Source: Eledone cirrhosa (taxonomy: Eukaryota). From it: 64,000 bases of DNA. How positions within the stretch are numbered: the stretch's first letter is position 1; each line of letters opens with the position of its first letter. Under the pieces are notes generated by a model. The model was not told where the DNA came from. It saw only the letters and a program-made list of their open reading frames with translations, and searched no databases. This document shows positions 947 to 64,000 of the stretch, piece by piece. The translations under genes and the position numbers were made by a program. The stretch is taken from the NCBI GenBank assembly GCA_964016885.1, contig OZ024741.1:376154001-376218000 (forward strand), given 5' to 3'.

Positions 947-3900
947 ATAATAATAAAGTTGAAGACTAAAATCCAAAGAGGGCTCGATAAGGATAAATAT
1001 ATATCAAATATATAAGAACCGTAGAGCAAATATTTATTAAAATAACAGATTAAAGTTTAAGCAAAGAATCGCTGCTAACGGAATCTTCTGAAACTAACAA
1101 AGTCAATCTGTAAACGCAGAACTGGATATTTCAAAAAACGTTGCAACCGGAGGAAGACAGGAAGACGATACTTTGGTTCGTGGAAACGTTCGCTGACAAA
1201 GAACGGGGAAAAACGAATAATACGTCATTAATAGAAGCGGTGAAAAACAATTACGCGCAAAGACAGAACCACGTTTATGGTATAAAAGAGGTCGTAGACT
1301 AATGTTCTCTTAGGTGGTGCATAGAGACGTTCTCTGGCAATGAACGAAAAAACGAAGGTAATACGTCATATGTGGAGCGTGGAGAACAATAGCACGCAAA
1401 GACAAAACCACGTAAATGGTATAGCAGAAGTCGTAGACTAAAATTCTAACTAGGAGACCAAATGAATCTCCGCTACAGAGTTAAAAACAAGTAAATAAGT
1501 ACAATACAGAAGTAATAGAAATAAATAAATACATACACGCAAACAAATACATACATACACAAGCATACGCAAAACCTTACCATAGGTATACAAAACCACG
1601 CACATATAAATATGTTTGTGTGTGTATGCGTGTATACAAATAAATAAATAATTATATAAACGTATATAAATAAATAAATACGTATATAACAAGCGCACAC
1701 ACATACCTACATATAAATACACGAATGTTCGGAGACGTAGGTCAACTAAAACAAGAAGTACACAATACACACACCCACCATACGTACGAACCCGCATACT
1801 CACACAGACGCAAAACTCCCGTATACACATAGCCAAACCCTATGTACCAGAATATATAAAATTATACGCCAAAACAATCAAATATACGTACGAGAAGGTA
1901 TACGTACCTTCACAAAACAAACGGGTAATACATACTTACCTATGCAAATAAGTAAAGGAATAAACAAAACATATACTTTGCTCCCACATCAGGACGTAAA
2001 ATATCCACGTATAGATCGTACTATCCGTTAGGGTATAAAGTGGGGCTGTAATACAGGAAAGTTTTGTGCAATTTATGTTTACAAGCCGAAATTGCCGCAG
2101 ATTTTTTGTTTAAGATGTGGTCTGAGGCGTAGAGTATTTCCAGGGCCTCAGCGGCGCAGAGGTCACATGGTCTTTTATTTCCATTATACGATCTAGCCCT
2201 AGCTAGGATCTCCCAGTGTAACTTATATTGGGTGTGGTTGTCTTTTAGACTCCAGATATAAGCTGAAAGTGACGTCATATTCCTTCTTAGAGGGTAACGA
2301 AAAGAATGGGTATGCATGTAAAGTCGCTGCTTGAAACTATTGGCGGTTAACCCTATGTAGGCCCTACGGGACGTGGGTGTTACAACCTTACATTTGTAGA
2401 CAATGTTACTAGAGAGGCATCTCGGATATGGGGCAATCAGCCCGATTCCTACAATTACAGTTAGTACTAACTACAGGGTTGCACGTGTTCCTACGGCTAG
2501 GTAGTTTAGCTAAATTTGAAGCTGTGATGTTATGTGCAAGGTTAGGAGTCGTAGAGTAAAAAATTTTAATAGTATTTCTATTAAAAACTTTACTATATTT
2601 ATGTGTAGGGGGAAAATGCTTCGTAATAAGGGAAAGAAAGATCTTAGATAATGGTGTGGCCACCTCCATATTATATGGTGGGTTATACCAACAAATGCGA
2701 CGGGATCTATTTCTTCTAGGTCTATTTTCGTACTCAGTATAAGCTACCTTATTGACAAATCCACTTCGAGCAAGAGCTTCATTGTAATAAGTGGAATGGT
2801 CGTTGAAAATACGCTCGTTGGTGGAAAGACGGGAAAGCCTCAACGAAACGTTTCTTACCAGGTTCTTGGTTATGCTAGCAGGATGGTTGGAATGCTTACT
2901 TATGTAATTAAGCGTATCATTCGGCTTTCTATACGGGTAATACAACCCATTCAATGAATTGAGGGTAACGTCGAGGTAATTAACGACCGAGAGATTGGGC
3001 TCAACCTGTATAGAGAGGTTGAAGCCTTTAAAGAAGGCTGTGAGTTCTTTTCTGAACCTGTCGCAAGCACGAGGTCCGCACTTAGTCATGGTCAAAAGAC
3101 CATCGTCACGGTACAAGCCACCGCCCGCGTTGGGGAATTCGTCCTTGATAGAGAAAAGAAAGAAAAGGCCAATAAGATCAGTAACCTCCCCAGAGTCACT
3201 GGCGCCCATACTCACGTCGAATGGGGTACTATTGGATTTTTTAATCCAAATAGAGTCGTCGAAATTAATCACCGACTTTCGGGCATTGAGGATGACATCG
3301 ACTTCGAAATCCTTAACCACTGTGAGTGTTTTAGCGAAATTGATAGCTCTAAGGAGAAGTGGTAAAGTGATGGAGGAGTAGTAATTGTTGATGTCGAATT
3401 GGATAAAACGGCAATGTTCCTTGTTACATATGCCGTTGAACCAATCAATCACCGCGAAACAATTGTTCCACAGTGCAAGAGAGGCCAAACTTCTAATTTG
3501 AGGTATAATTCTATCAAGAATCGTTTTACTAAGTCTACCTAAATCGGACTTCGTAGGGTTAATAATCCGAATAGAGGGGTTTTTTCGGAAAATTGGATTT
3601 GTGATCCTTCAGGGTAAAGTGGGGAGAAATAGGTTCCAAAGGTTCGGTCCGGTCCAGGATGTTGAGATCAGATGTGATTTTAAACCCAGCATCGTTGATT
3701 TCATTGATGACGCACCGATTAGTTTTATGGTAATCCTTAGTTATAGCATTATGTAGTAGTTGATGGTAAGTACTGCGCTCCACTTGATATAGGTTGCCAG
3801 TTTTGTGGGAATGGACGTGCACAGCGTTAGAATCCTTAATAGAACGAATTCTTGCTGGAAGGAATTGCTCCTATTCCGAAATTTGATGCTCCGAATGAGT

Positions 3901-4720
3901 TCCAAGACATCATTTTCGAAGGGTAGCAATGCTGGGTTACACGGAGGGTTATTATAGGTTTTAAATCCAAACTTATCCTGTTTGTTGTCTGCTTTTCGCG
4001 GATTATCGAAATAAAAGGCGCGCCAACGCAACCTTTTAATAAACGCGTCTGTTTTCTGTATCAGGAGTTTTAGGTATGTTTTCCTGCTAGGTATGGGTAT
4101 GTTCTTTGTAGAAATATTCAGATGTTGTTTCTGCATGATGAATATAAGTCAGTAGAGTGCTCAACCGAGGGAGCCAAATAGTAATGATAATAAATTTGAA
4201 GACTAAAATCCAAAGAGGGCTCGATAAGGTTAAATATATATCAAATATATAAGAACCGTAGAGCAAATATTTATTAAAATAACAGATTAAAGTTTAAGCA
4301 AAGAATCGCTGCTTTCACCCTTAACGGGTATACCATTTACGTGGTTTTGTCTTTGCGTGCTATTGTTCTCCACGCTCCACATATGACGTATTATCTTCGT
4401 TTTTTCGTTCATTGCCAGAGAACGTCTCTATGCACCACCTAAGAGAACATTAGTCTACGACCTCTTTTATACCATAAACGTGGTTCTGTCTTTGCGCGTA
4501 ATTGTTTTTCACCGCTCCTATTAATGACGTTTATTCGTTTTTTCCCGTTCTTTGTCAGCGAACGTTTCCACGAACCAAAGTATCGTCTTTCTGTCTTCCT
4601 CCGGTTGCAACGTTTTTTGAAATATCCAGTTCTGCGTTTACAGATTGACTTTGTTAGTTTCAGAAGATTCCGTTAGCAGCGATTCTTTGCTTAAACTTTA
4701 ATCTGTTATTTTAATAAATA
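942..4720 (-). mobile_element. Penelope-like retroelement, family H1 (Hydra-clade-like), near full length, with 3' pLTR, partial direct 5' pLTR and inverted pLTR
   Basis: RT and GIY-YIG ORF remnants. 942-1075 is repeated directly at 4180-4328, 4329-4720 is the reverse complement of about 1029-1421, and both ends abut (TA)n. Confidence 0.93.
2021..4136 (-). pseudogene. Frameshifted PLE reverse transcriptase / GIY-YIG endonuclease ORF
   Basis: Motifs TLKDHK, FIQFDINNYYSSI, FDVSMGASDSGEV, GLYRDDGL, NYLDVTL, SNHP, WYNPPY, CNCRNRADCP linker, CDLC; split over several frames. Confidence 0.92.
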
Positions 4721-6763: not shown

Positions 6764-9408
6764 TAAACACAGAGACACAGAAAACAGGTAATGACAGTAG
6801 CACAGAAATAAGGGAAGGTAATAGGATTGAAAGGAGAAGGGAGACAATGGACAGAGAAAATAACCAAGACGAACACATAGACACACAAAATAGAGTAGAT
6901 AATGACAATGAGCCAGAGGAAAGAGACAGGAGTAATAATGAGAGACTTAGAAACAAACATGAGGCTGTTTGTGGAAATAGAAATAGAAACAACACAACCA
7001 ACAATAACAATAGTACTAGTACACATAATGTAGCAGCCTGGAACTCTACTTTTTATAATCCCTCCGATAAGTCGTCCGACCTGCGACGAGTCCACGCCAC
7101 GACTATAGCTTTTAACAAAGGCTCGCAATTGCTGTCGCAGGTCGATGAACAAACAGAAGCACAATTTAGTATAGCTAGATCTAAACTTAGAAATATTATA
7201 GAACAGTATAGCAAGAAATATAATAGAATGGAGGCCCAGCAACTGGGAGAAAAATCTGCAAATGGCTTGCGTAAGCTCATGCAACGCTCGCGTAATGGAG
7301 AGATAGCATGCTTTCCAACAGACAAGTCTGGCAGAATGTCGGTTGACAGTCTGCCAAACTACATCCAGGCAATGCAACCCTACATCACTAACACAAGAGA
7401 AGTAACAGCACAAGAGCATGACGATAGAGAAAAAGCCCCCAATGCCCATATGATGATGTGGACAAATATAATGCAGCCCAACAAAAGGACTGCCAACAAC
7501 TTCCAGGCCTGGAACAATGACGTGCCAGCGTTGTTTGGGCTTCGAAAAGACCATAAAACGATCAGTGACCCTGTCACAGGACCACCAACACGGCCAGTCT
7601 GTGGAGCTAATATTGCTAGTAACTACAGACTGTCCTACTTCCTCTCCCTGATCATACGCCTCATCATTGAAATGTCCCCAGATGTATGTGACAGCACGGA
7701 GGACCTCCTCAGCAGAATCGGCGAGAGTAACCGATCTAGGGACCTAACAAACTGCATAATAGGTAGTATGGATGGTGTGTCCCTGTATCCATCTATTTAC
7801 GTGGATTTTGCTGTGGAGAAATGCGTAGAAATGATCAGTGAGAGCAATGTTGAATTCCGTGGGATTGATACCAGTGAGCTGGGACTCCTACTTAAACTTA
7901 CCTATAGTAATAATTATCTAGACACATATGACCTTAGCAACCTGTGCCCTACAAGACCAGCAAGAGGCAGACCACCTACCATTACCTCAATGGCCAAGAA
8001 AACCCACACAGATAGATGGAACGGGTGGACCAGAGCCATACGGACCCTCGAAAACCACGATGAACTAAAGAAAGTGATTGCACATGCGGTGGTGCCCAGC
8101 ATAAAATTAACCCTTAAGGAACATATGTTCAAATTGAATGAAAAAACATATGCCCAAGAGGAGGGCGCAGCCATTGGTGTTAGCATTGCAGGCGACATAG
8201 CTAACCTATTCATGGTATGGTGAGACAGTAGAATTAAACGTAAACTTAAAGAACAATTAGAAGACACCTTAACCCTGATAATGTACTCCCGCTACATCGT
8301 AGTTAAAACACCCCCACTAGAGAACAGTCAAGAATTAGAGAAAAACACAATGGAAAGCATCCAGCAAATAGCTAACTCCATCCACCAGAGTATTAGAGTT
8401 ACTATAGACTACCCAATCAAACACCCCAACCATCGATTACCTGTACTAGACACAAAGTTCTGGTTAGATACCATTAATAACAAAACACAAATCCTCCATT
8501 CCCATTATGCCAAACCCATGACTTCCAAATATCTGATCCACCGAAACTCAGCTGTTTCGGACCATACCAAAATCAACATACTGATTGCGGATTTGGTACG
8601 GGTGATGAGAAACGTGTCCCGCATGTGCAACCCCGAAGAACTAGAGAGACACATACAACACTTCATCCACCGTATGCAGTTCTCTGGTTACAATCAGAGA
8701 GATAAAATCAGAGTGTATAGAGGAGCCAGAACCAAATGGTGAAAAAATGGTAAATAATGACACAAATGGGACCTGGCCCTTGTATAGGAGCAAATTTTGG
8801 AATAGAATAGAAAGAACTAGGAACAAGGCTAATAGAATAAACTCATGGTATGATAGCAATAAATATCAGAGTGTAATCTTCATCGATACAACCCCTAGAG
8901 GTGAATTAGCTTACAAATTTAGAAGGGCCCTCGATAAACATAAACTCAATATTAAGATAGTAGAAAGACCAGGTACCTCCATAAAACACTTATTAGGAAG
9001 ACATACCCTTTTCAAAGACCTCCTTGTATCGATAAGAAATGTATAATCTGTAAATTAAGCCTCCATATTAACTGTAAAACTAGAAATGTAGTATATAGTA
9101 TAAGATGTACTGAAGGACAATGTAGAGATCAAAATATAGTGTACATAGGTGAGACAGCTCGTAGTATATGGGAACGGATAAATGAACACTGGCGAGACCT
9201 TCAAGATAGTAAAGAATCATCTGTACTCTACCAACATGCTAAAATAGAACATAAGGGTAAATTAGAGAACATAGAAATAAAAATAGAATCTACACACAGA
9301 AAAGACGCAATGTTTAGACAAATCACAGAGGCAATAAACATAAATGAACTCCAACCAAAATTAAATAGAAAACGTGAGTGGACCAGCAACATCACAACTT
9401 ACAATTAA
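6764..9408 (+). pseudogene. Disrupted PLE RT / GIY-YIG ORF
   Basis: [66 protein letters not shown]...VYIGETARS..ERINEH; contains stops and frameshifts, and the catalytic YxDD is deleted (YSRY-IVV). Confidence 0.88.
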
Positions 9409-9610
9409 GGACAAAATGAAAACACACACACACATAGAACAAACAACCAACCAGTAACATGTAAATAAACAAATAAATAAACGAATATAAACACACACAG
9501 ACACCCGGATGTAACACATGCGCAAACTAAGCACACAACACACACACACAAATAAGATGGCGTAGGACAGAACAAAGGAGATGCACAAAAAACAAAGAAA
9601 ACAATCCCCA

Positions 9611-9653
9611 GTCACTGAAGAGGTTACAGAATGTGTGACGAAAGAACTTTGAC
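9611..9653 (+). ncRNA. Minimal type I hammerhead-like motif in pLTR
   Basis: GTCA/TGAC stem I; CTGAAGA plus an extra G; GTTACA/TGTGAC stem II; GAAA; very short stem III; CUU site. Confidence 0.55.
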
Positions 9654-9861
9654 AATATATAAACAACCATCTGGTTGTGGAACCAACCAACCAACCGGAA
9701 ATTTATAAATTCCTAAATTTATAAATTTATTATAATAAATTGAAGTGAAAGCCAACTGGTACGTGTGTTTCTTATTGGCAACATGACCCTCCCAAAGTAT
9801 AACAATATCGGTTTCAACACACGTTTTCAGATAAAGAATCTTGCTAAACAAATTCAGAAAC

Positions 9862-9918
<57 letters not shown>

Positions 9919-11981: not shown

Positions 11982-13805
11982 CATGGAGGTTTAAATCTTA
12001 TTAATTTAGTGGCAATTTTGTGTCTGCAGAAGATAGATCTTTCTAACTTGTTGTTAAGTAGCCTTTTTACATTTTTAAGGATATACAGTAGTTCTAGATC
12101 ACATAGCCCACAGTGGGACATACCTGTACTGTAGGTTTTAGCAGCCGACAACCTCGACCAGTTGATACTGTAACTAGTGTTGTTGTCCTTCAGTTCCCAT
12201 ATTTTTTGGCGTGCAATTTTTCATCGAGTGCCTGTGCACATACCATCTTTTTTTAAAAGAACCCGCGGTGGATCCAATGTAATGCCAGGTGGAATTGTGT
12301 GAGTTGACCGTACACATGTACACTATGCTCGAATCGAGACATCTATTCGCCAATGGGTACCTATCCGTTAGGTGACAGTTACAGTTTGAGGTGTTATTTC
12401 GTGCAGCTTCTACACTGCTGTTTAGTACTCTGCTATAAGTGGGTTGTGATTCATGCCCGTTGGGGTATTGCTGTTGCGCGCTTGTATGTGCTTGCGGTTG
12501 TGGTACTGTGATGTGTTTATGCTTATAATTTGGTGCTATGTTGCGCATAGGTGGCGCTGATACCCTAGAGATATTTCTGTGGTTGATCCTGCGTATGTGC
12601 GATTCTATATTTGCTGCCGTAGAGTATGAGAGTTTTATAGTATTTCTATTGAGTATTTTATGATATCTATGTGAAATAGGGAAGTGTTTATCTATTAGTT
12701 TAAAGAATGTAGAAGGCAGTCTGGTTTTTCAGAGGAGTTGAAGATTGGGTTGAACCGTAGGTATTTTCTTTCTCTGATTCTTCTATTGTTTCTAGGGTTT
12801 ACGTTATTAGTGTTTTGACCGTTCACTCTAGGTGCTACGTGCCTAACCCTATGTCTAGTCCAGTTACTTCTATTTTTGTGTAAGCGGCTGGTATAGTTGC
12901 TATTAGGATTGTTTACGTTGTCTTTATTCGCTATATACTGCAGTTTATCTTTATGTCCGGCCCTACGTAATGCTGCGTTATAATAGTTAGCATGTTCGTT
13001 AAAGATTTCTTGGTTTGGGGATAAGCGGGATATTCGAAGGGATATACTACGTGCTATGGATCTGATTATGGATTTGGGGTGGTTTGAGTTATAACTAATG
13101 TAGGCCAGATTTTCATTATTTTTGTGGAAAGGTTCTATTAATCCCGTATTTAGATTTAGAGTCACATCTAGAAATTTTAACCTCTTATGGTTCAGTTCGT
13201 AGGTAATACTTAGGCCTAGTTTTTTGAAGAATGTTCTAATGTTTTTTCTTAAACTTTCCATGCTCTGGTTGTTTAAGTTCTTAGCTATAAGGAGCGTGTC
13301 GTCTCTATAAATCCCTCCTTGGAGGTTACTGAATTCCTTATGTAGGTTGTGTGCTATGAATAGCCCCACGATGTCTGTGATTTGCGCAGAGTCATTTGAT
13401 CCCATTGTTATATCGGAGCTGTTTATCCTATCTCTTCTTACCCAGTAGCTATTTTCAAATTTTATGATAATCCTTCTAGCCGCTATTATTATTTCAATTT
13501 CCTCAGAAGTAAGATCGGAGTTATTTTGGGCAAATATAAGCGCTTTATCTAGAGTCGCTGGGGATATGGATGAATAGTAGTCGTCTATATCAAATTGTAT
13601 GAAGTTACACGTCTCCCTATTTTGTATTTTATTGAACCATTCAATCGCCTCGTTAGTATTACCCCATACATTGATTTCTAGTTTACCCTTTATTTGTGCG
13701 ATTACCCTATCTAGAATGTTCTTGCTAATTTTGACTATGTCTGACTTGGATGGGCATATTAATCTAATGGTAGGGTTTGTTTCAAAACTATTTTTGTGAT
13801 CCTTC
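11982..13805 (-). pseudogene. Truncated PLE RT / GIY-YIG ORF
   Basis: KDHK, FIQFDIDDYYSSI, MGSNDSAQITDIVG, GIYRDD, FLDVTL, SNHP, CNC linker, IVYMC...HYIGST..FKKRW, CGLC. Confidence 0.9.
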
Positions 13806-14034
13806 GACAGTCTTTACATGTCAATTTTATACATCTGCCTCGTATCAGCTAGTTTTATACGGTAAATCGTAGATATACTATACTTCCCACCTAGATTGAT
13901 GTTGTGATTATTTCAAATAATTTATTGCTAGCATTGTTGATATTGTTGTTATTGTTCTAACTGAATGCCATTACTACTACATATAGTAGCCTGTATATTC
14001 TTTTCATGCCTGTATATTCTCTTCATTCTCGCAA

Positions 14035-21086: not shown

Positions 21087-22808
21087 TATAAGATCAAAAG
21101 ATGGTTAAAGGAGTTCAATATATTTTATTATGCGCATTTCAAAAACAAACATCATCAAACAATAATATTTGTGTTTTCATCAGATAAAACAGGAGAACAT
21201 GATATGAAGGCTAAAAAAACACTTGTTGATAGTGCAGTTTTAAATCAACATATGAAAAGTGGTTTTAGATTGATGTGTGATATTGGGAAAAATATTTTAT
21301 TTAGAGAGGGGGGGAGAGAAAAGGATGAAAAGGGAAGGAGATGAGAGGGAGAGATGGGTGATAGAGAGAAAGAGATAGTTTTTATAACTGAGAGGTGATA
21401 TATTTTATATAGAGGGGTTGAAAACCGTTGGAAGATACTGTATAAATTAAAAATTTTGAAAATTAACGAAGGGAGGATATGTGCGAGGAAAAATATATTA
21501 TATTTAGGGAGGGGGGGGGTGGAAAGGATGAAAAAAAGGGGAGGAGATGAGAGTGAAGGTGGAAAGGGAGAGATGGGTGATAGAGAGAAAGAGATAGTTT
21601 TTATAACTGAGAAAAAGATATAATGTTTTAATATAGAGAGGTTGGGAACCGTTGGAAGATAATGTATAAATTAAAGGAATTTGAAAATTAACGAAGGGAA
21701 ATTATGTATGGAGATAGAGAGAAAAAAATAACGAAGGGAAATTATGTATGGAGATAGAGAGAAAAAAATAATAATTGTGGGTGAATATTCTAACGTCAAA
21801 AGAAGAAATGTAGGAATTTTAAAATTAGCAAAGAGAAAAAGTTTATGTGTAGAAGGATTTGAGAAAAATAATGTGAAGTTAAAGTTTGTATATTGAATTC
21901 ATATGTATTAATAATGAGTTCGTTGATGGGGAGAAAAAAATAATAATAAATTAAGGATGAAATTGAGATTAAAAAGATTTATGATAGAGAGAAAAAATAA
22001 TAATGATTGCGGATGAATACTCAAAATGTCAAAAACAAATGTTATTGTTTTACGAGGAGATAGAATGAGGGTGATGAGTAAACGGGTATTATAGAGTGTA
22101 TAATGCCCTTTAAAGTAAGGTAGATGGGTATATTTTAAAGAATATATGAGTATATATTAAAAAAAATATATAATAATAAATTAAGGATGAAATTGAGATT
22201 AAAAAGATTTATGATAGAGGGAAAAAAAAAAAATAATAATGATTGCGGATGAATATTCAAAATGTCAAAAACAAATGTTATTGTTTTACGAGAAGATAGG
22301 ATGAGGGTAATGAGTAAACGAGTATTATAGAGTGTATAATGCCCTTTAAAGTAAGGTAGATGGGTATATTTTAAAGAGGTGTATGTATATGTGCCTTTGA
22401 GAAAAGATTCTAAATTGATAAAGAATTGAATATTAACTGTATACTTTGTGAAAAGTTCTATGGAATTTATGCAGGCAGATGGAAAACAAATCCGAGCGTC
22501 TATTTATTATGGATTCTAGGTTAGAGATAATGGTAAATTTTTCATTTAGGCAGAGATTACAGATTTTAGATAGAGAGCTGTTCAAGTACGAGGATGCAGA
22601 AGAAATCTTTTTCCAAAAGATGTTATATTTAATGTTTTTGTCTTTTAAGGACCATATGAGTTCTGAGAGAGCAGTGTTAGTTCTTTTAAGTTTGTATTTG
22701 AAAGATGAATGATGATTATAGAGACGAGCTTTAAAAGAGGTGGAAGTGGAGCCAAAATAGGTGAAGGAATTGGTGCTAGTTATAATTTTACATTCATAAA
22801 TTATATAT
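21087..22808 (-). mobile_element. Nested 5'-truncated PLE (EN, 3' UTR, pLTR)
   Basis: Minus strand about 22434-22805 reads [46 protein letters not shown]; internal ~235-bp duplication (about 21940 and 22172). Confidence 0.85.
21123..21189 (-). ncRNA. Type I hammerhead ribozyme
   Basis: Same motif as 15241-15307: CTGATGA, GAAA, palindromic ATGCGCAT, 6-bp stem I. Confidence 0.78.
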
Positions 22809-22899
22809 TCATATATATATATGTGTGTATATATATATATATATGTATATATATGTGTGTATATATGTGTATGTATTTGTGTATATATGTATGTGTGTG

Positions 22900-22969
<70 letters not shown>

Positions 22970-22988
22970 TATATGTATGAATGGTGTA

Positions 22989-23027
<39 letters not shown>

Positions 23028-31627: not shown

Positions 31628-32261
31628 AAGGAAAATATCGCCCTACATGGCTGAATACAATAAATGTAATCTGAGTTTTTCGAATATTAATAATCGTTTC
31701 TACTTTTGGCACAAGGCCAGCAATTACCCGGTACATTACTGGTACTTTATTTTATCGACCCCGTAAGGATGAAAGGCAAAGTTAACCATGGCGGGATTTG
31801 AACTCAGACCATAAAGGGCTGTAACTCTTTGCTGCAAAGCATGGCGTCCGACCCACTACATTCGATTCGTTTGCAATTTCGATTCGTTTGCAATTATGCA
31901 AACAAGCCTCAATTTTATAACCATGTCATTAGAATGAACACTTCATTCTTGCTCTTGTGTTGGCATGTGAACAGAACTGCAGACACAAATGTTTCTGGGT
32001 ATCACCCTTCATCAGTACAGGTCACTCTTCACCTGCCAAACTGTCAGAGCTAGTGAAAATATATGCTATTTTCAAAAAAAAACACAGTGACTGATCGGCC
32101 TGATTTGCATATTAGCAGGCTGGCTGATCAGCTGTTCATATGCCAACACAAGAGCAAGAATGAAGTGTTCGTTCTAGTGACATGGCTATAAAATTTAGGG
32201 TTGTTTGCATAATTGCAAACGAATCGAATATTATCATTAATATTCGAAAAGCTCAGATTAC

Positions 32262-33432: not shown

Positions 33433-33637
33433 ATATATATATAATGAATGAGTAATTTGTTTTGTTGATTATACAACAAAGTTAATTTACAACAGATTAG
33501 AAGCACTCAACGGTATATTTTCCGGAGTATCATTAATATCAATAATATTAATAAATGGAAAATATCTTTATAAAAGCATATTTTTTTTATTATACGTATT
33601 TCAGGGTACAAATATTTTAGTACGCTTTCGTCCGTAT

Positions 33638-33694
33638 TTTTATCTGACGAAAGCGTACTAAAATATTAGTACCCTTGAAATACGTATAATAAAA
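33638..33694 (+). ncRNA. Type I hammerhead ribozyme within fold-back 33443-33752
   Basis: TTTTAT/ATAAAA; CTGACGA; AAG..GTACTAA/TTAGTAC..CTT; GAAA; palindromic ATACGTAT; AUA. Confidence 0.83.
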
Positions 33695-34003
33695 TAAATA
33701 TGGTTTTTATAAAGATATTTTCCATTTATTAATATTATTGATATATTATTGATATATATATCGAATTAAAAAAATGGAGTTAAAGACACATTAATCCTCT
33801 ATAATTTAATGAGCTCAATCAATAGATTCTGACCTTTTTAAAAAACAGTATATAGAGAGAAATACACAAAGAGGTATGAGTTTAATAATAGGGGATAGAG
33901 AACCACCAGAGTCAAGAACATATTGTCTACGAAAAGAAAGGAGGGTAAAAATTAATTAAAAGAATAAATTAAAATATACAAACCATTCAATAATAAGCAT
34001 TAC

Positions 34004-43210: not shown

Positions 43211-43951
43211 TACGTAGATACGTATATGTGTACAGGCGTACAGTAGTATGTATATATATACATACATGCACACATATATATATATGTACGTATGGGTTTA
43301 CCGAACATTTATTATAATGTTGGTTTGTTTGTTACAAACAAACGAACATTATAATAAATGTTCGGTAAACACATACGTACACATATATATATATGTGTGC
43401 ATGTATGTATATATATACACATATTACTGTACGTCTGTACACGTATATGTATGTACGTATAAATACTTATATTTAGGTATCAGCCGTACTAAGAGTGAGA
43501 AATGAAATTTCGTTTCATTCTTTTCCATTTATCGTTTTCGGTGCGCCCGGCCGACTAACTCACTGGATATGCAAATTAGGCTGCTCAGCCGTTAATATGC
43601 ATAGGGAAAGTATATACTTTCAAACGTTCAATCATCTGACAGAAAGGTATACGATGCTGACGATAGCTAATAAGCTTGAAACTAGTACATCGTTCCTGTG
43701 TCAGTGTTGAACAAAAGGGCGACGATGGTTGCCGAGCACTGTACGGCGTAATTCGGGCTGTTTGTTTACAAACAATCCGAACATTATAATAAATGTTCGG
43801 TAAACCCATACGTACATATACATATGTGTGTATGTATGTATATATATATACATACTACTGTACGTCTGTACACATATATGTATGTACGTATAAATACTTA
43901 TATTTAGGTATCAGCCGTACTAAGTGTGAGAAATGAAATTTCGTTTCAATC

Positions 43952-56297: not shown

Positions 56298-59200
56298 AAA
56301 ATTTATTCTGTTATTTTAATAAATATTTGCTCTATGGTTCTTATATATTTGATATATATTTATCCTTATCGAGCCCTCTTTGGATTTTAGTCTTCAAATT
56401 TATTATTATTACTATTTGGCTCCCTCGGTTGAGCATCTATTGACTTATATTCATCATGCAGAAACAACATCTGAATATTTCTACAAAGAACATACCCGTA
56501 CCAAGCAGGAAAACATGCCTAAAACTCCCGATACAGAAAACAGACGCGTTCATTAAAAGGTTGCGTTGGCGTGCCTTTTATTTCGATAATCAGCGAAAAG
56601 CAGACAACAAACAGGATAAATTTGGGTTTAAAACCTATAATAACCCTCCGTGTAACCAAGCATTGCTACCCTTCGAAAATGATGTCTTGCAACTCATACG
56701 GAGTATCACATTTCGGAATAGGAGCAATTCCTTCCAGCAGGACCTGAAGAATAGAATTCGTTATATTAAGGATTCTAATGCCGTGCACGTCCCCTCCGAC
56801 AAAACTGGCAACCTATATCACGTGGAGCACAGTACTTACCATCAACTACTACATACTGCTGTAACTAAGGATTACCGTAAAACTAATCGGTGCGTCATCA
56901 ATGAACTCAACGATGCTGGGTTTAAAATCACCTCTGATCTCAACATCCTGGACCGGACGAACCTCTGGACCCTATTTCTCCCCACTTTACCCTGAAGGAT
57001 CACAAATCCAATTTTCCGAACAACCCCTCTATTCGGCTTATTAACTCTACGACGTCCGATTTAGGTAGACTTAGTAAAAGCATTCTTGATAGAATTATAC
57101 CTGAAATTAGAAGTTTGGCCTCTCTTGCACTGTGGAACAATTCTTTCGCGGTGATTGATTGGTTCAACGGCATATGCAACAAGGAACATTGCCGTTTTAT
57201 CCAATTCGACATCAACAATTACTACTCCTCCATCACTTTACCACTTCTCCTTAGAGCTATCAATTTCGCTAACACACTCACAGTGGTTAAGGATTTCGAA
57301 GTTGATGTCATCCTCAATGCCCGTAAGTCGGTGATTAATTTCGACGACTCTATTTGGATTAAAAAATCTAATAGTCCCCCATTCGACGTGAGTATGGGCG
57401 CCAGCGATTCTGCGGAGGTTACTGATCTTATCGGCCTTTTCCTTCTTTTCTCTACCAAGAACGAATTCCCCAACGTGAGCGGTGGTTTGTACCGTGATGA
57501 TGGTCTTTTGACCATGACTAAGTGCGGCCCACGTGCTTGCGCCAGGTTCAGAAAAGAACTCAAATGGCTTCAACCTCTCTATACAGATTGAGGCCAACCT
57601 CTCCGTCGTTAATTACCTCGACGTTACCCTCAATTTATCGAATGGCTTGTATTACCCGTATAGAAAGCCGAATGATACGCTTAATTACATAAGTAAGCAT
57701 TCCAACCATCCTGCCAGCATAACCAAGAACCTGGTAAGAAACGTTTCTTTGAGGCTTTCCCGTCTATCTACTAACGAGCATATTTTCAACGACCATTCCA
57801 CATATTAAAATGAAGCTCTTGCTCCGAGTGGGTTTGTCGATAAGGTAGCATATACAGAGTACTAGAATAGACCTAGAAGAAATAGATCCCGACGCATTAT
57901 ATGGTATAACCCACCATATAATATGGAGGTGGCCACACCATTAGCTAAGATCTTTCTATCACTTATTACGATGCATTTTCCCCGTACACATAAATATAGT
58001 AACATTTTTAATAGAAATACTATTAAAATTTCTTACTCTACGACTCCTAACCTTGCACATAACATCACAGCTTCTAATTTAGCTAAACTATTTAGCCGTA
58101 GAAACACGTGCAACCCTGTAGTTAGTACTAACTGTAATTGTAGGAATCGGGTTGATTGCCCCATATCCGGGAAATACCTCTCTAGTAACATTGTCTACAA
58201 ATGTCAGGTTGAAACACCTACATAGGGTTAACCGCCAATAGTTTCAAGCAGCGTCTTTACATGCATACCCATTCTTTTCGTTACCCTCTAAGAAGGAATA
58301 TGACGTCACAGCTTATATCTGGAGTCTAAAAGACAACCACACCCAATATAAGTTTCACTGGGAGATCCTAGATAGGGCTAGATCGTATAACGGAAATAAA
58401 AGACCATATGACCTCTGCGCCGCTGAGGCCCTGGAAATACTCTACACCACAGACCCCATATTAAACAAAAAATCTGAGGCAATTTCGGCTTGTAAACATA
58501 CATTGCACAAAACCTTTCTGTATTACAGCCCCACATTATACCCTAACGGATAGTACGATCTATACGCGGATATTTTACGTCTTGATGTAGTAGCTAAGTG
58601 TATGTTATGTTTATACCATTACTTATTTGCACAGGTAAATATATATTACCTGTTTGTTTTGTGAAGGCACGTATACTTTCTCGTACGTATATTTGATTGT
58701 ATGTTATGGCGTATATTTTATATATTCTGGTACATATGCTTTTGGTTATGTGAATGCGGGAGTTTTGCGTCTGTGTGAGTATGGGGGTTCGTACGTATGT
58801 AGGGTGTGTTTACATGTGTACTTCGTGTTTTGGTTGACGTACGACTCCGAACATTTGTGTATTTACATGTAGGTATGTGTGTGCGCTTGTTATATACGTA
58901 TTTATTTATTTATATACGTTTATTTAATTTTTTGTGTACACGTACACACCAACACACATATTTATATGTGCGTGTATTTGCATACCTATGGCGAGTGTTT
59001 TCGCGTATGCTTGTGTATGTACGTATATGGATGTGTGTATGTATTTATTTAATTTCAATTACCTGTGTATTTTATTTACTTTATTCTTAACTCTGAAGCG
59101 GACAATCATTCGGTTTCCTAGTTAGAATTTTAGTCTACCACTTCAATTATACCATTTACGTGGTTTTGTCTTTGCGTGCAATTGTTCTCCACTCTCCACA

Positions 59201-59638
59201 TATGACGTATTATGTTCGTTTTTCCGTTCATTGCCAGAGAACGTCTCTATGAACCACCTAAGAGAATATTAGTCTACGACTTCTTTTATACCATAAACGT
59301 GGTTCTGTCTTTGCGTGTAATTGTTTTTCACCGCTCTAAATAATGACGTATTATATTCGTTTTTTCCCGTTCTTTGCCAGGGAACGTTTCCACGAACCAA
59401 AGTATCGTCTTCCTGTCTTCCTCCGGTTGCAACGTTTTTTTAAATATTCACTTGTGCGTCCACAGATTGACTTTGTTAGTTTCAAAAGATCCCGTTAAGG
59501 GGAAAGCAGCGATTCTTTGCTTAAACTTTAATCTGTTATTTAACAAATATTTGCTCTACGGTTCTTATATATTTGATATATATTTATCCTTATTGAGCCC
59601 TCTTTGGATTTTAGTCTTCAAATTTATTATTATTACTA
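56298..59638 (+). mobile_element. Penelope-like retroelement, family H1, near full length with direct pLTR
   Basis: 56307-56414 is repeated at 59533-59639; colinear with the reverse complement of 942-4328; ends in (TA)n. Confidence 0.93.
56456..58553 (+). pseudogene. Frameshifted PLE RT / GIY-YIG ORF
   Basis: MQKQHLNISTKNIP, RLRWRA, DKTGNLY, FDINNYYSSI, GLYRDDGL, WYNPPY, CNCRNRVDCP, IVYKC. Confidence 0.92.
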
Positions 59639-59698
59639 TATATATATATATACAATGATATTAAATAAATGGAAACTATATTTATAAAACCATATTTA

Positions 59699-59755
59699 TT
59701 CTATTACATATATTTCAAGGGTACCAACATTTTGGTGGGCTTTCATCAGATAAAA
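59699..59755 (-). ncRNA. Type I hammerhead in short insert 59653-59822
   Basis: TTTTAT/ATAGAA; CTGATGA; AAG..ACCAA/TTGGT..CTT; GAAA; TATATG; GUA; related to 33638. Confidence 0.75.
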
Positions 59756-60074
59756 TGCGAAGTGTGTTTTATAAATTTTGACATAACCAAGAAAAATACC
59801 TTAACGTTTCAAGTTTACCTTATATATATATATGAAATACCAATGATGGCTGGCAAATCACTGATGAGAGACTAATTTTATAATATGTAACCCATGTGCA
59901 ACCATGCAGTTTTCCTCTTTCTTCCCATGTTTTATATATATATATATATGTGAATATAGACATAGAATATTCGAAAATACTCTGTATGTTTATAATAAAC
60001 ATTTTGAAGACCTAATCGCTATAGAATAGAATACGTCACGTATTACAATTAGATTCTCGATAAAAGCAAGGGAA

Positions 60075-60117
60075 GTAATCTACGCGTTTCATTCTTATTA
60101 GAAATCTTCAGGACTAC
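60075..60117 (-). ncRNA. Minimal type I hammerhead ribozyme
   Basis: Exact inverted copy of 60570-60612. Confidence 0.9.
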
Positions 60118-60569
60118 ATATCCAGTGCTTTTATCGAGAATGATACAGCTAGAGACTTATAGAATACTTAGCTGTGTACAGGAACTGGTTTGAAAGAGCG
60201 GTTGCCGGTCCGGCAGAAATTAGAAATTGGAATAAATGTTCTGAAATAGCGATATATATGTGAATATAGACATAGAATATTCGAAAATACTCTGTATGTT
60301 TATAATAAACATTTTGAAGACCTAATCGCTATAGAATAGAATACGTCACGTATTACAATTAGATTCTCGATAAAATGTTTATTATAAACATACAGAGTAT
60401 TTTCGAATATTCTATGTCTATATTCACATATATATCGCTATTTCAGAGCATTTATTCCAATTTCTAATTTCTGCCGGACCGGCAACCGCTCTTTCAAACC
60501 AGTTCCTGTACACAGCTAAGTATTCTATAAGTCTCTAGCTGTGTCATTCTCGATAAAAGCACTGGATAT

Positions 60570-60612
60570 GTAGTCCTGAAGATTTCTAATAAGAATGAAA
60601 CGCGTAGATTAC
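60570..60612 (+). ncRNA. Minimal type I hammerhead ribozyme, canonical core
   Basis: GTAGTC/GATTAC; CTGAAGA; TTCT(AATA)AGAA; GAAA; palindromic ACGCGT; GUA. Confidence 0.9.
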
Positions 60613-60765
60613 TTCCCTTGCTTTTATCGAGAATCTAATTGTAATACGTGACGTATTCTATTCTATAGCGATTAGGTCTTCAAAATGTTTATTATAAACA
60701 TACAGAGTATTTTCGAATATTCTATGTCTATATTCACATATATATCGCTATTTCAGAGCATTTAT

Positions 60766-60796
<31 letters not shown>

Positions 60797-60948
60797 ACGA
60801 AGGAAATGTGGTAAGGAACCATGTGGACCATAACGCACCAAAGTACTCAATACTTAGGGTAAGAGTGGTCTTACTTGTTCCTATATATATATATATATTA
60901 TTACTATATATATATATATGGTAATAATAATAAATTTGAAGACTAAAA

Positions 60949-60999
<51 letters not shown>

Positions 61000-61040
61000 A
61001 TATTAAATAAATGGAAACTATATTTATAAAACCATATTTA

Positions 61041-61097
61041 TTCTATTATATATATTTCAAGGGTACCAAAATGTTGGTGCGCTTTCATCAGATAAAA
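61041..61097 (-). ncRNA. Type I hammerhead in short insert 60994-61163
   Basis: Second copy of 59699-59755; palindromic ATATATAT; AUA. Confidence 0.75.
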
Positions 61098-61160
61098 TAC
61101 GAAGTGTGTTTTATAAATTTTGACATAACGAAGAAAAATACCGTAACGTTTCAAGTTTAT

Positions 61161-61201
<41 letters not shown>

Positions 61202-61303
61202 ATATACGAGTTAAAAAGAAATGCAACTTGTCTGTGTTACTAGTATTTACTGACATATGGTTTCCTAAGTGGTTGAAAACTTCTGATGAAATGTAAATAA
61301 GAT

Positions 61304-61378
<75 letters not shown>

Positions 61379-61381
<3 letters not shown>

Positions 61382-61600
61382 ATAATAATAAATTTGAAGA
61401 CTAAAATCCAAAGAGGGCTCAATAAGGATAAATATATATCAAATATATAAAAACCGTAGAGCAAATATTTGTTAAAATAACAGATTTAAGTTTAAGCAAA
61501 GAATCGCTGCTTTTACCCTTACTGGGATCTTCTGAAACTGTTTCAGAAGATCCCGTTATGGGTGAAAGCAGCGATTCTTTGCTTAAACTTTAATCTGTTA

Positions 61601-61607
<7 letters not shown>
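61379..61607. mobile_element. Fold-back of family H1 pLTR end, centred at 61539
   Basis: ...tcttctgaaac-t-gtttcagaaga...; HHR-like motif 61540-61588 (GTTT-CAGAAGA-TCCC..GGGT-GAAA-GCA..TGC-TT-AAAC). Confidence 0.85.
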
Positions 61608-61645
<38 letters not shown>

Positions 61646-61889
61646 GCACACATACATGCATATATATATATATATGTTTGCTTGTTTGTATGTGTGTATG
61701 TGTGTGTGCGTGTGTTTGAGTTCATACTGACAAATATATAGACTTACACGGACAAAATATTACTAAAATAAATCTTTTGATATAACATAACTTGTCAATT
61801 TAGCTATAAGTATCTTGGATATTTGTTGCTGATACACTGAAGAAACACATTCACCGTCTTTGTGTCTGTATGTGTGTGATATATATATA

Positions 61890-62330
61890 TACTAGCAGAG
61901 GTACCCGGCGTTGCTCGGATATTAAATAGAAGTTGTGTATATCATTTATGTCAATACTTCAGTGCTGCTTCGAAATCTATACTTTTACAAAATCATCGGC
62001 TTTTTCCAAAAGTGTGTTCCTGCCCCCAGGGGTCTCCTGCTCAATATGTGCCAATTCTGAGAGTTCACCTTCATCTGTAGGACAAACGTAGCCCATGTGT
62101 CAAGTTTTGTCAAAATCGGTTGCGAACTCCAGAAGTTATGACGTTTAGTTGCATTGCTCTGCAGTGCTTCAGTCGACTCCAAGGAAGTGGTTAAAGGGGT
62201 TAAAGGGGTTATCTGCCGGGAGGCCCTATAATCAATATATGGAAAAATGAAGGTGCCGATGACCATCCGGAGTACATAAGTAACCTAGGTCTTCAATTTG
62301 GTGAAAATACTGTAGAAATGCATAAGGTTT
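61890..62330 (+). mobile_element. Possible non-autonomous Helitron/Helentron-like element
   Basis: Starts tactagc...acccggcgttgctcgg after (TA)n; internal aagttttgtcaaaatcggtt and aatttggtgaaaat motifs recalled from such elements, not verified. Confidence 0.45.
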
Positions 62331-62547
62331 ATACATACGCACGCGCGCGTGTGTGTGTGTGTGTGTGTCTGTGTCTGTGTTTGTGGGTGTGCATGTATTT
62401 GTGTGTGCGTATGTATGTATATGTCAGTCGGGGCATACGTATGTACTGGCCTAAATCTTCACTATTTACTTTCACTATTTTAATAACCTCTGTCATTTTC
62501 GTTTTCAATTTTATTTACATCATTCTTAAACTCCGGGGCTGGAAATC

Positions 62548-62660
62548 ATCGCTTTTTTCCGTTCACTGCCAGGGAACGTCTTCACGAACCAAAATATCGT
62601 CTTCCTGTTTTCCTTCGGTTGCAACGTTTCTCGAAATATTTACTTCTGCGTTCACAGATT
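62548..62660 (+). mobile_element. Family H1 pLTR fragment
   Basis: Matches 59358-59470. Confidence 0.75.
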
Positions 62661-62917
62661 ACTCTCAGTTCAATTTGAATGGGAAATTCCTGTTTCATCG
62701 ATTTTCTCCGTAACCATGGCAGCTTGTATGTTGAATGTCGACTCAACGCCTCCTCGTGTCATTCTGCATAACTGTGTAACTTTTCGCTGCATTCCACCAA
62801 GCCGTTTCGACGTTTATCCGACTGCACCTACATATACAACGTCTGACCACTTCCAATTTATACAGTAGATATATATAGAGAGAGGGAATAAATCAGGTAT
62901 ATAAAGAAATGTGTATG

Positions 62918-62970
<53 letters not shown>

Positions 62971-64000
62971 TTGAATATGTGTCGGTTGCTTAGCGATACT
63001 TCAGAATGCAAGTTGCAGCACTCAACTAAATACGCAGGTAAGTCGACAGATTAAAATTAACTTCATTTATTCATATTCGCTGCTATATATATTTCAGTGA
63101 TAACCATTATTCAACAGTTATGACCTCACCAGGCAGCTAGAACTTGAATAGAAAAAAACCAAGGAAACATAATGTTAATTCGTTGATATGCCAAGATCAG
63201 AAATCTGATGTTGTTAATTAAAAGAACTAAAATGAAAGAACTCGAGCATCAGAAGGGTATACCTTCCTCTCATTGGTCAGAGTATACTTTTCTCTCATTG
63301 TCCTAACAAGTCAGTTGTCTTTGAAGCAGGTGAGCCTGCTAGGGATGATTTTAACAATCAGCTGTACTAACTGCATGTAGGTGTGATTTGTCGTAGTTGA
63401 TCTATTTTTACTATAGTGGCAGTGGTGTAAGCAGGTCTCTCTTTTGCGGTAGTATTGTAGTTGCTATTAAGGAAATCATGCCTGCAACCCGGTATGGCCT
63501 CCCTTGGAAGCGCGAGGGCTATATTCACATCCTGGTAGTAGGAGAAATTAGAATTATAACTGCAGGTGTTAAAACCTCTACGTGTAACAATGTGTAAGTG
63601 CTAAAAAACAATAAGTGTTGAACATTATAATTGATATTTTAAACAGTTAGTACATACCCACAAACAACCATCTGCGTATCCTCACACGTACACAGCCATC
63701 TATATATACATGCCTGCACATACACACTTACATCTATACGGTCACATACATCTATACCTAATCATATCTGTGTACACATCTATACACGCACTCACACAAG
63801 TACATACATACACATACATGCATACATCCATACGTGCACACGCACAGACACACGTGTTCCCTTTGAAGGGGTGGGAGGAGAATTAATAGGTGCTTCCTAT
63901 TTACTTATCACTGTTAGTACTGACTTTTGTGTGCGAAAGGGGTTAGATTTAAGGTAGCTTGTCCTTCGGAGAACCGGATCACTGCCCGGTGGAGGATGGT

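Follow-up and report, generated by a model that had tools for sequence, protein, structure and literature searches.

What process could lay down a short ribozyme repeat more than once round in one orientation, and then more than once round again in the other, within a run of (TA)n? The question is raised by an insert in the genome of Eledone cirrhosa, which lies in the window, by which is meant the whole 64,000-nt stretch of DNA analysed here. A sequence-only reading had described a 310-nt non-coding unit that runs about 1.4 times on the minus strand and about 1.3 times on the plus strand, in near-identical copies, and had ascribed it to a circular RNA copied by a PLE enzyme and folded back on integration. 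The geometry was borne out by measurement (Table 1). The period is 310, the arms span 1.40 and 1.29 units and differ from each other at 2 positions, and both outer ends enter (TA)n. The unit, with a GC content of 34%, is also non-coding as claimed, in that no stop-to-stop frame of at least 120 amino acids overlaps the insert, and the hallmark of an autonomous PLE, a frame for RT plus GIY-YIG between terminal repeats, is absent from it.

Table 1. Features of the insert, in window coordinates; position 1 of the unit is 60607, the first base after the predicted cut.
Feature	Coordinates	Strand	Remarks
Left (TA)n target	59933..59950		overlaps the S end
Left arm	59942..60375	-	434 nt, 1.40 units; unit positions 16-310, then 1-139
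Left-arm outer end			S (short) start site, within the unit's own ATATATAT; merges into (TA)n
Second hammerhead	60075..60117	-	identical to the plus-strand one; predicted cut 60081/60080
Head-to-head centre	60372..60375		4-nt microhomology, overlap of both arms
Right arm	60372..60771	+	400 nt, 1.29 units; unit positions 76-310, then 1-165
Helix I extension, 16 bp	60546..60634	+	60546-60561 paired with 60619-60634
Canonical type I hammerhead	60570..60612	+	predicted cut 60606/60607; motif scan, published definitions
Core CUGAAGA	60576-60582	+	GAAA strand follows further on
PLE-type tail	60746..60771	+	26-35 nt separating the S and T start sites; right end only
Right-arm outer end			T (tail) start site; merges into (TA)n
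Right (TA)n target	60770..60796

The ribozyme itself was described as a perfect minimal hammerhead in each unit. The elements and the cut site are as stated, and the motif scan recovers all of the core bases together with three helices, of which helix I has 6 bp, helix II 4 bp over a U·U pair and the palindromic helix III 2 bp; at E<=1 no Rfam hammerhead match was found over 57000-64000. The rest of that description has to be amended. By the definitions in the available text of PMC4209133 the form is canonical metazoan type I rather than minimal, a form in which the palindromic helix III is weak and activity is expected from the dimer. It is not perfect, since helix II has U·U at its base, as does that of the axolotl HHR_Amex2, a ribozyme that cleaves (PMC7229834). 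Nor does each unit carry one, as there are only two complete hammerheads in the insert, because each arm crosses the cut site once. With one hammerhead per arm and no tandem pair in either, the window copy is, to judge from its sequence, a product that would have no capacity to release a monomer and hence would be no source of circles; most family loci do have at least two complete hammerheads in tandem. The predicted circular fold of the unit has a z of -4.3.

The region around the insert is a nest of (TA)n-targeting elements. A different hammerhead repeat flanks it on both sides (59622-59833 and 60964-61175) and is found again at 33633-33772, with cores at 59749 (-), 61091 (-) and 33644 (+). 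Another tandem hammerhead repeat, with a period of ~430 nt, occupies 43451-43950 (core 43657) and has copies in loci L197, L203, L173 and L222, both orientations adjoining. A hammerhead-like motif at 32015 (-), in the middle of an inverted repeat at 31800-32250, also occurs in L159. PLE frames in a state of decay, from two clades or more, lie at 6800-9900 (+), 2021-4148, 12174-13813, 22433-23005 and 56444-57612; the plus-strand element at 6800-9900, of which the genome contains many close copies, bears a minimal hammerhead within its terminal repeat, near 9615.

How large is the family to which the 310-nt unit belongs, and how old? Copies were counted genome-wide by exact sequence patterns, with reversed patterns, which gave 0-3 matches, as controls. 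The window version of a 33-nt core has 2,544 exact matches against 0 for its reversed control, so the motif is not due to chance; a pattern that allows A, C or G at the varying base of the core has 4,055, the core variants forming one family (303/310 identical), and a 30-mer outside the ribozyme has 16,422, which corresponds to at least 16,422 units. Copies at (TA)n, which had been proposed as a check and were looked for by pattern, appear as 997 exact junctions between the T end at position 165 and (TA)n. Dividing the genome-wide unit count by the median of 7.3 units per two-armed locus (arrays reach 28 units) gives an estimate of about two thousand young insertions, and the family makes up ~5 Mb, or 0.17% of the genome. 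Only 108 single-round substitutions were found in 262,217 bases. The repeats of the window are presumably octopus-like, and the rate used for dating rests on that presumption. At 3.6e-9 per year, a rate derived from figures in part of PMC13282606, the mean age of the family is at most about 0.1 million years, and the window copy, with 2 differences in 834, may be somewhat older than this mean. The family is a young, high-copy, non-coding 310-nt hammerhead repeat.

The anatomy of insertions was followed across 110 loci, mostly on contig C1, of which 50 (the window among them) were picked by internal patterns and 60 by an end at position 165. For counting, L039 contributed a single one of its duplicated pair of copies, while an unrelated partial arm (L233) and two short fragments (L285) were excluded; in L039:1940-6252 one two-armed insertion lies on both sides of an N gap, probably through duplication in the assembly. 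Complete two-armed insertions number 82, in a further 11 one end falls beyond the stretch or into a gap, and 17 show a single arm (8 T, 7 S and 2 cut off). All 82 two-armed insertions are head-to-head with the RNA 3' ends outward, and in all 82 one S end (unit ~125-139, its exact base blurred by the unit's own ATATATAT) is paired with one T end (~154-170), such that the tail is present at one end only. Among these, 38 were picked on internal sequence only, and for this end-independent subset the chance expectation is 0.5^38, or 4e-12. Inspection by eye revealed target duplications of ~10-12 bp at the 5 loci whose flanks are informative, the remaining loci lying in (TA)n, which cannot reveal them. 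This is the anatomy reported for PLEs, which have a 30-40 bp extension at one end plus an inverted 5' copy (PMC8557442) and, in rotifers, a head-to-head arrangement with a 31-bp tail and 8-10 bp duplications (PMC3846280). A purified PLE cuts and extends both target strands, and its tail is the stretch that separates the two RT start sites (PMC11167929). The match of the fixed S and T ends and the head-to-head shape to PLE tail anatomy supports PLE-type integration, and across the 110 loci the earlier terms PLE-type integration, retrozyme and recent are all upheld.

Enzymes of the appropriate kind are present in the genome as near-intact PLE frames of 868-1096 aa with RT and GIY-YIG, and a CxxC motif ahead of the C-terminal GIY-YIG makes them appear Neptune- or Nematis-like by the motif given in the available text of PMC8557442. 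The search for a partner covered only a small fraction of all PLEs in the genome. The unit's 3' module was not found at the PLE frames of 60 GIY-YIG loci (30 of 150 scored family matches and 30 of 150 matches to one window protein), nor a matching terminal repeat in 20 long-frame PLE loci, nor, by comparison with shuffles, matching 3' regions in 19 of 28 regions, nor a consistent coding partner across 30 loci each of the older families D and F. Around the other 109 loci, the PLE matches belong to a mixture of families and run in both orientations. The lone match beside a PLE, L150, was considered as a partner's terminal repeat and proved to be a separate family F insertion. A near-identical unit also occurs in runs X4, X5 and X6, of unknown kind and with other organism labels, as one 340-nt contig each, accompanied by little or nothing of the flanking repeats; such a contig represents a closed 310-nt cycle that tandem DNA would equally yield, and from the contigs of four such runs neither strand nor ends nor circularity can be read.

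Is the hammerhead, then, simply carried along, or is it needed for each round of propagation? Substitutions were classed as tolerated or not by hammerhead rules, which place 30% of the possible ribozyme substitutions in the tolerated class. In 72 loci not picked on the ribozyme, with two loci excluded for alignment artefacts and an inherited single-base insertion in helix I of three loci left out of the count, 9/9 distinct locus-fixed ribozyme substitutions are tolerated, against 4/18 single-round ones (Fisher p 1.5e-4), and no locus-fixed change of the hammerhead core was found in the 110 loci. By this pattern of change the ribozyme is apparently selected at each cycle. The older family F, with 2,153 pattern matches and 64-67% identity to the 310-nt unit, has both sides changed at 4/13 aligned pairs of the helix I extension, as read from the L321 alignment, and its insertions end at the same two regions as those of the 310-nt unit; its arrays are short and decayed. 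Families F (L313-L342) and D (L119-L148) have the unit's 3' module and the two end regions in common, which suggests successive waves, all due to the same type of enzyme.

Inherited changes, read on the RNA strand, include 12 A>G against 4 T>C, and single-round changes 11 A>G against 15 T>C, a contrast with p 0.057. The excess was rejected as proof of editing at that p value, and also because the change from A-U to G·U would also be favoured by selection for pairing; the lean would be explicable either through editing or through a preference for G·U pairs, and both imply an RNA step. A>G changes at unit positions 20, 101, 259, 276 and 295 are found repeatedly, in haplotypes that otherwise differ, and several of them lie in U-A contexts inside helices; these recurrent sites are possible editing hot spots or products of recombination between circles. 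The G at position 101 was at one point taken as private to the window locus, an idea abandoned on finding it in L235.

What template was copied? Among 95 loci with nearly all columns called there are 39 haplotypes, 28 of them seen once, and minor alleles agree between the two arms at 116 sites (55 loci) and disagree at 6. Mosaic columns number 14 in 9 loci, and include blocks of adjacent rounds in L258, L232 and L277. Mosaics aside, each insertion is one haplotype through all of its rounds and both of its arms. For a new mutation to occupy every round it must have passed through a single monomer, which points to one template molecule per insertion. Inner ends fall at the cut site in 4/162 cases against 5.7 expected, without the pile-up there that run-off from cleaved linear RNA would produce. 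The earlier suggestion of a single-monomer, likely circular template is in this way supported by the 110 loci.

The reading that we consider probable is that the insertion is a non-LTR retrozyme, likely formed by twin-primed PLE reverse transcription of a predicted monomer circle; for membership among non-LTR retrozymes, judged on the sequence, our confidence is high. The arrays would be transcribed, paired hammerheads would cut the RNA to monomers, and the monomers would be closed to circles. A PLE enzyme with RT and GIY-YIG would then cut (TA)n with a stagger of ~10-12 nt, leaving one nicked strand to prime at T (~165) and its partner to prime at S (~130-139). From there the cDNAs would circle the template, each for a variable number of rounds, and their two 3' ends would finally be joined through microhomology and filled in.

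Part of the published record counts against the circle. In vitro, the one PLE assayed could insert without needing the hammerhead, which itself depended on protein to cut (PMC11167929), and 8/9 frog retrozyme dimers did not cleave in vitro (10.64898/2026.07.22.740005). The 14 mosaic columns, moreover, mean that a circle model needs template switches, while a mixed linear template would yield mosaics naturally. One could therefore envisage, though we think it unlikely, that a PLE with two primers copies linear multimeric RNA, and that short founders are later lengthened by unequal crossover. Such lengthening, with local amplification favoured, is the model of 10.64898/2026.07.22.740005; the lizard PLE acts in vitro chiefly on unprocessed RNA (PMC11167929), and the adjacent variant-round blocks of L258, L232 and L277 are what this route would leave. 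Against it, both arms are multi-round with a common haplotype, and at least two units are present in each arm at 49/81 loci. The 108 single-round substitutions, set beside the 14 multi-round columns, indicate little copying after insertion, run-off at the cut site is not seen, the ribozyme is spared among inherited changes, and an RNA multimer of 7 to 28 units with working hammerheads would presumably not stay whole.

Does the second arm need a primer of its own? In L1 twin priming both target strands prime cDNAs, which are joined by microhomology to leave an inverted 5' part and a target duplication; the second primer there anneals within a linear RNA at positions that vary, and the two arms have hardly any overlap, whereas in the 310-nt insertions both priming sites are fixed and the arms repeat one unit many times. 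The sequence-only reading had instead proposed a fold-back, in which a folded cDNA, or self-primed antisense RNA (PMC3846280), gives rise to a second arm that is a DNA copy, central deletions blurring the symmetry. Haplotypes common to both arms would suit this, as would a weak correlation of arm lengths (rho 0.22, p 0.05) and an excess of near-symmetric centres, 10/81 lying within 7 nt of symmetry against 3.9 expected (p 0.006), an excess that local palindromes can supply and that is also a signature of fold-back or snap-back. The other 71/81 centres, however, are offset by more than 7 nt, and centres are spread all round the unit. The S arm (the ~130 end) is the longer in 33/81 simple loci, the window included, and the shorter in the others, and in the window neither arm contains the whole of the other. 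In L258 the T arm shows A in the outermost four rounds but G in the remaining inner two, and the S arm shows G throughout its seven, so the arms are not mirror images. With arms unequal either way, centres scattered and the L258 variants unmirrored, two separately primed cDNAs fit better, and fold-back is in our view quite improbable. At the 58 insert-free centres an overlap of at least 2 nt is present in 37, against 18% expected, and 6 have long overlaps, several of them at the 16-bp helix. L232, a compound array beside a gap, shares the polarity of L258, and L277 switches within its T arm; together these three hint at a template switch and at priming from the T site first, three loci being too few for certainty.

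A route without any RNA step, in which a DNA circle serves as template (an excised monomer, Helitron-like or as an extrachromosomal rolling circle), could be expected to give the same uniform single-haplotype tandem arrays, but fits poorly with the fixed PLE-type ends and target duplications, with ribozyme selection and compensatory pairs, and with the strand bias of inherited A>G changes, and it seems very improbable. An artefact of long reads or of assembly as the cause of the inversion, which the duplication of L039 around its N gap might invite one to suspect, is extremely improbable in view of the asymmetric S and T ends with different flanks in 82/82 loci, the target duplications, and the other strand-flip unit joints in contigs of run X1, which may itself be the assembled sample.

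Beyond twin-primed copying of a circle, a more ambitious version is tentative and to our minds doubtful. The arrays would in that case record in vivo rolling-circle reverse transcription by a dimeric PLE, T first, with the A>G changes due to germ-line A-to-I editing; each of the two subunits would prime from a different target strand, one at either end of the tail, with a single RNA circle as their common template. If true, it would explain the PLE tail and the inversion in one step.

How does the element compare with those already described? It fits the known non-LTR retrozymes, for which unit length (about 170-400 nt), GC and non-coding tandem arrays are diagnostic. Those of metazoans (coral, mussel and axolotl; PMC7229834 and 10.64898/2026.07.22.740005) are likewise ~300-nt, low-GC, non-coding tandem units with a type I hammerhead per unit and a highly paired predicted circle, and likewise have PLEs in the same genome. 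They differ in that cleavage and circles have been demonstrated for them, the 310-nt family being known here from its DNA, and in that the latter consists mostly of two-armed insertions with fixed ends, unlike the metazoan retrozymes as described in the available texts. With the endonuclease-bearing PLEs Penelope/Poseidon, Neptune, Nematis and Naiad (PMC8557442, PMC3846280, PMC11167929) it shares the head-to-head arrangement and a one-end tail, of 30-40 nt in those elements. With them it also shares two RT start sites 3' of the hammerhead, AT-rich or (TA)n targets and a short target duplication, but the 310-nt insertions have no coding frame and both of their arms are many rounds of a short unit. 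The non-autonomous PLEs of Chlamys, such as MRC1 (PMC8557442), are likewise non-coding, PLE-mobilised, often multicopy head-to-tail and targeted to microsatellites; they differ in that their 3' ends are similar to that of their autonomous partner, and the available text of that paper reports their clade to be without canonical hammerheads, whereas the hammerhead of the 310-nt unit appears to be under selection.

That retrozymes spread through rolling-circle copying by PLEs is stated as a hypothesis in PMC7229834, the vertebrate survey of 10.64898/2026.07.22.740005 argues from co-occurrence and pLTR similarity, and the available text of PMC8557442 calls the origin of inverted, tailed PLE insertions undefined. 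By word search, the main texts of PMC7229834 and 10.64898/2026.07.22.740005 do not describe inverted arrays or target sites, and that of the latter does not describe a tail or haplotypes. No published account of retrozyme insertion anatomy, or of the 310-nt family, was found in a search that covered mainly openly accessible papers. The insertion anatomy gives support, by direct genomic evidence, to the published rolling-circle PLE hypothesis. It ties a retrozyme to the PLE mechanism through the scars of insertion, beyond co-occurrence, and favours two primers over self-priming. With an estimated two thousand or so young insertions the pairing of ends, the haplotype and the centre can all be counted, and the 310-nt unit offers a substrate with two predicted start sites, so that two open mechanistic questions become directly testable. 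For the genome of Eledone cirrhosa itself, this is a family that sows long perfect inverted repeats.
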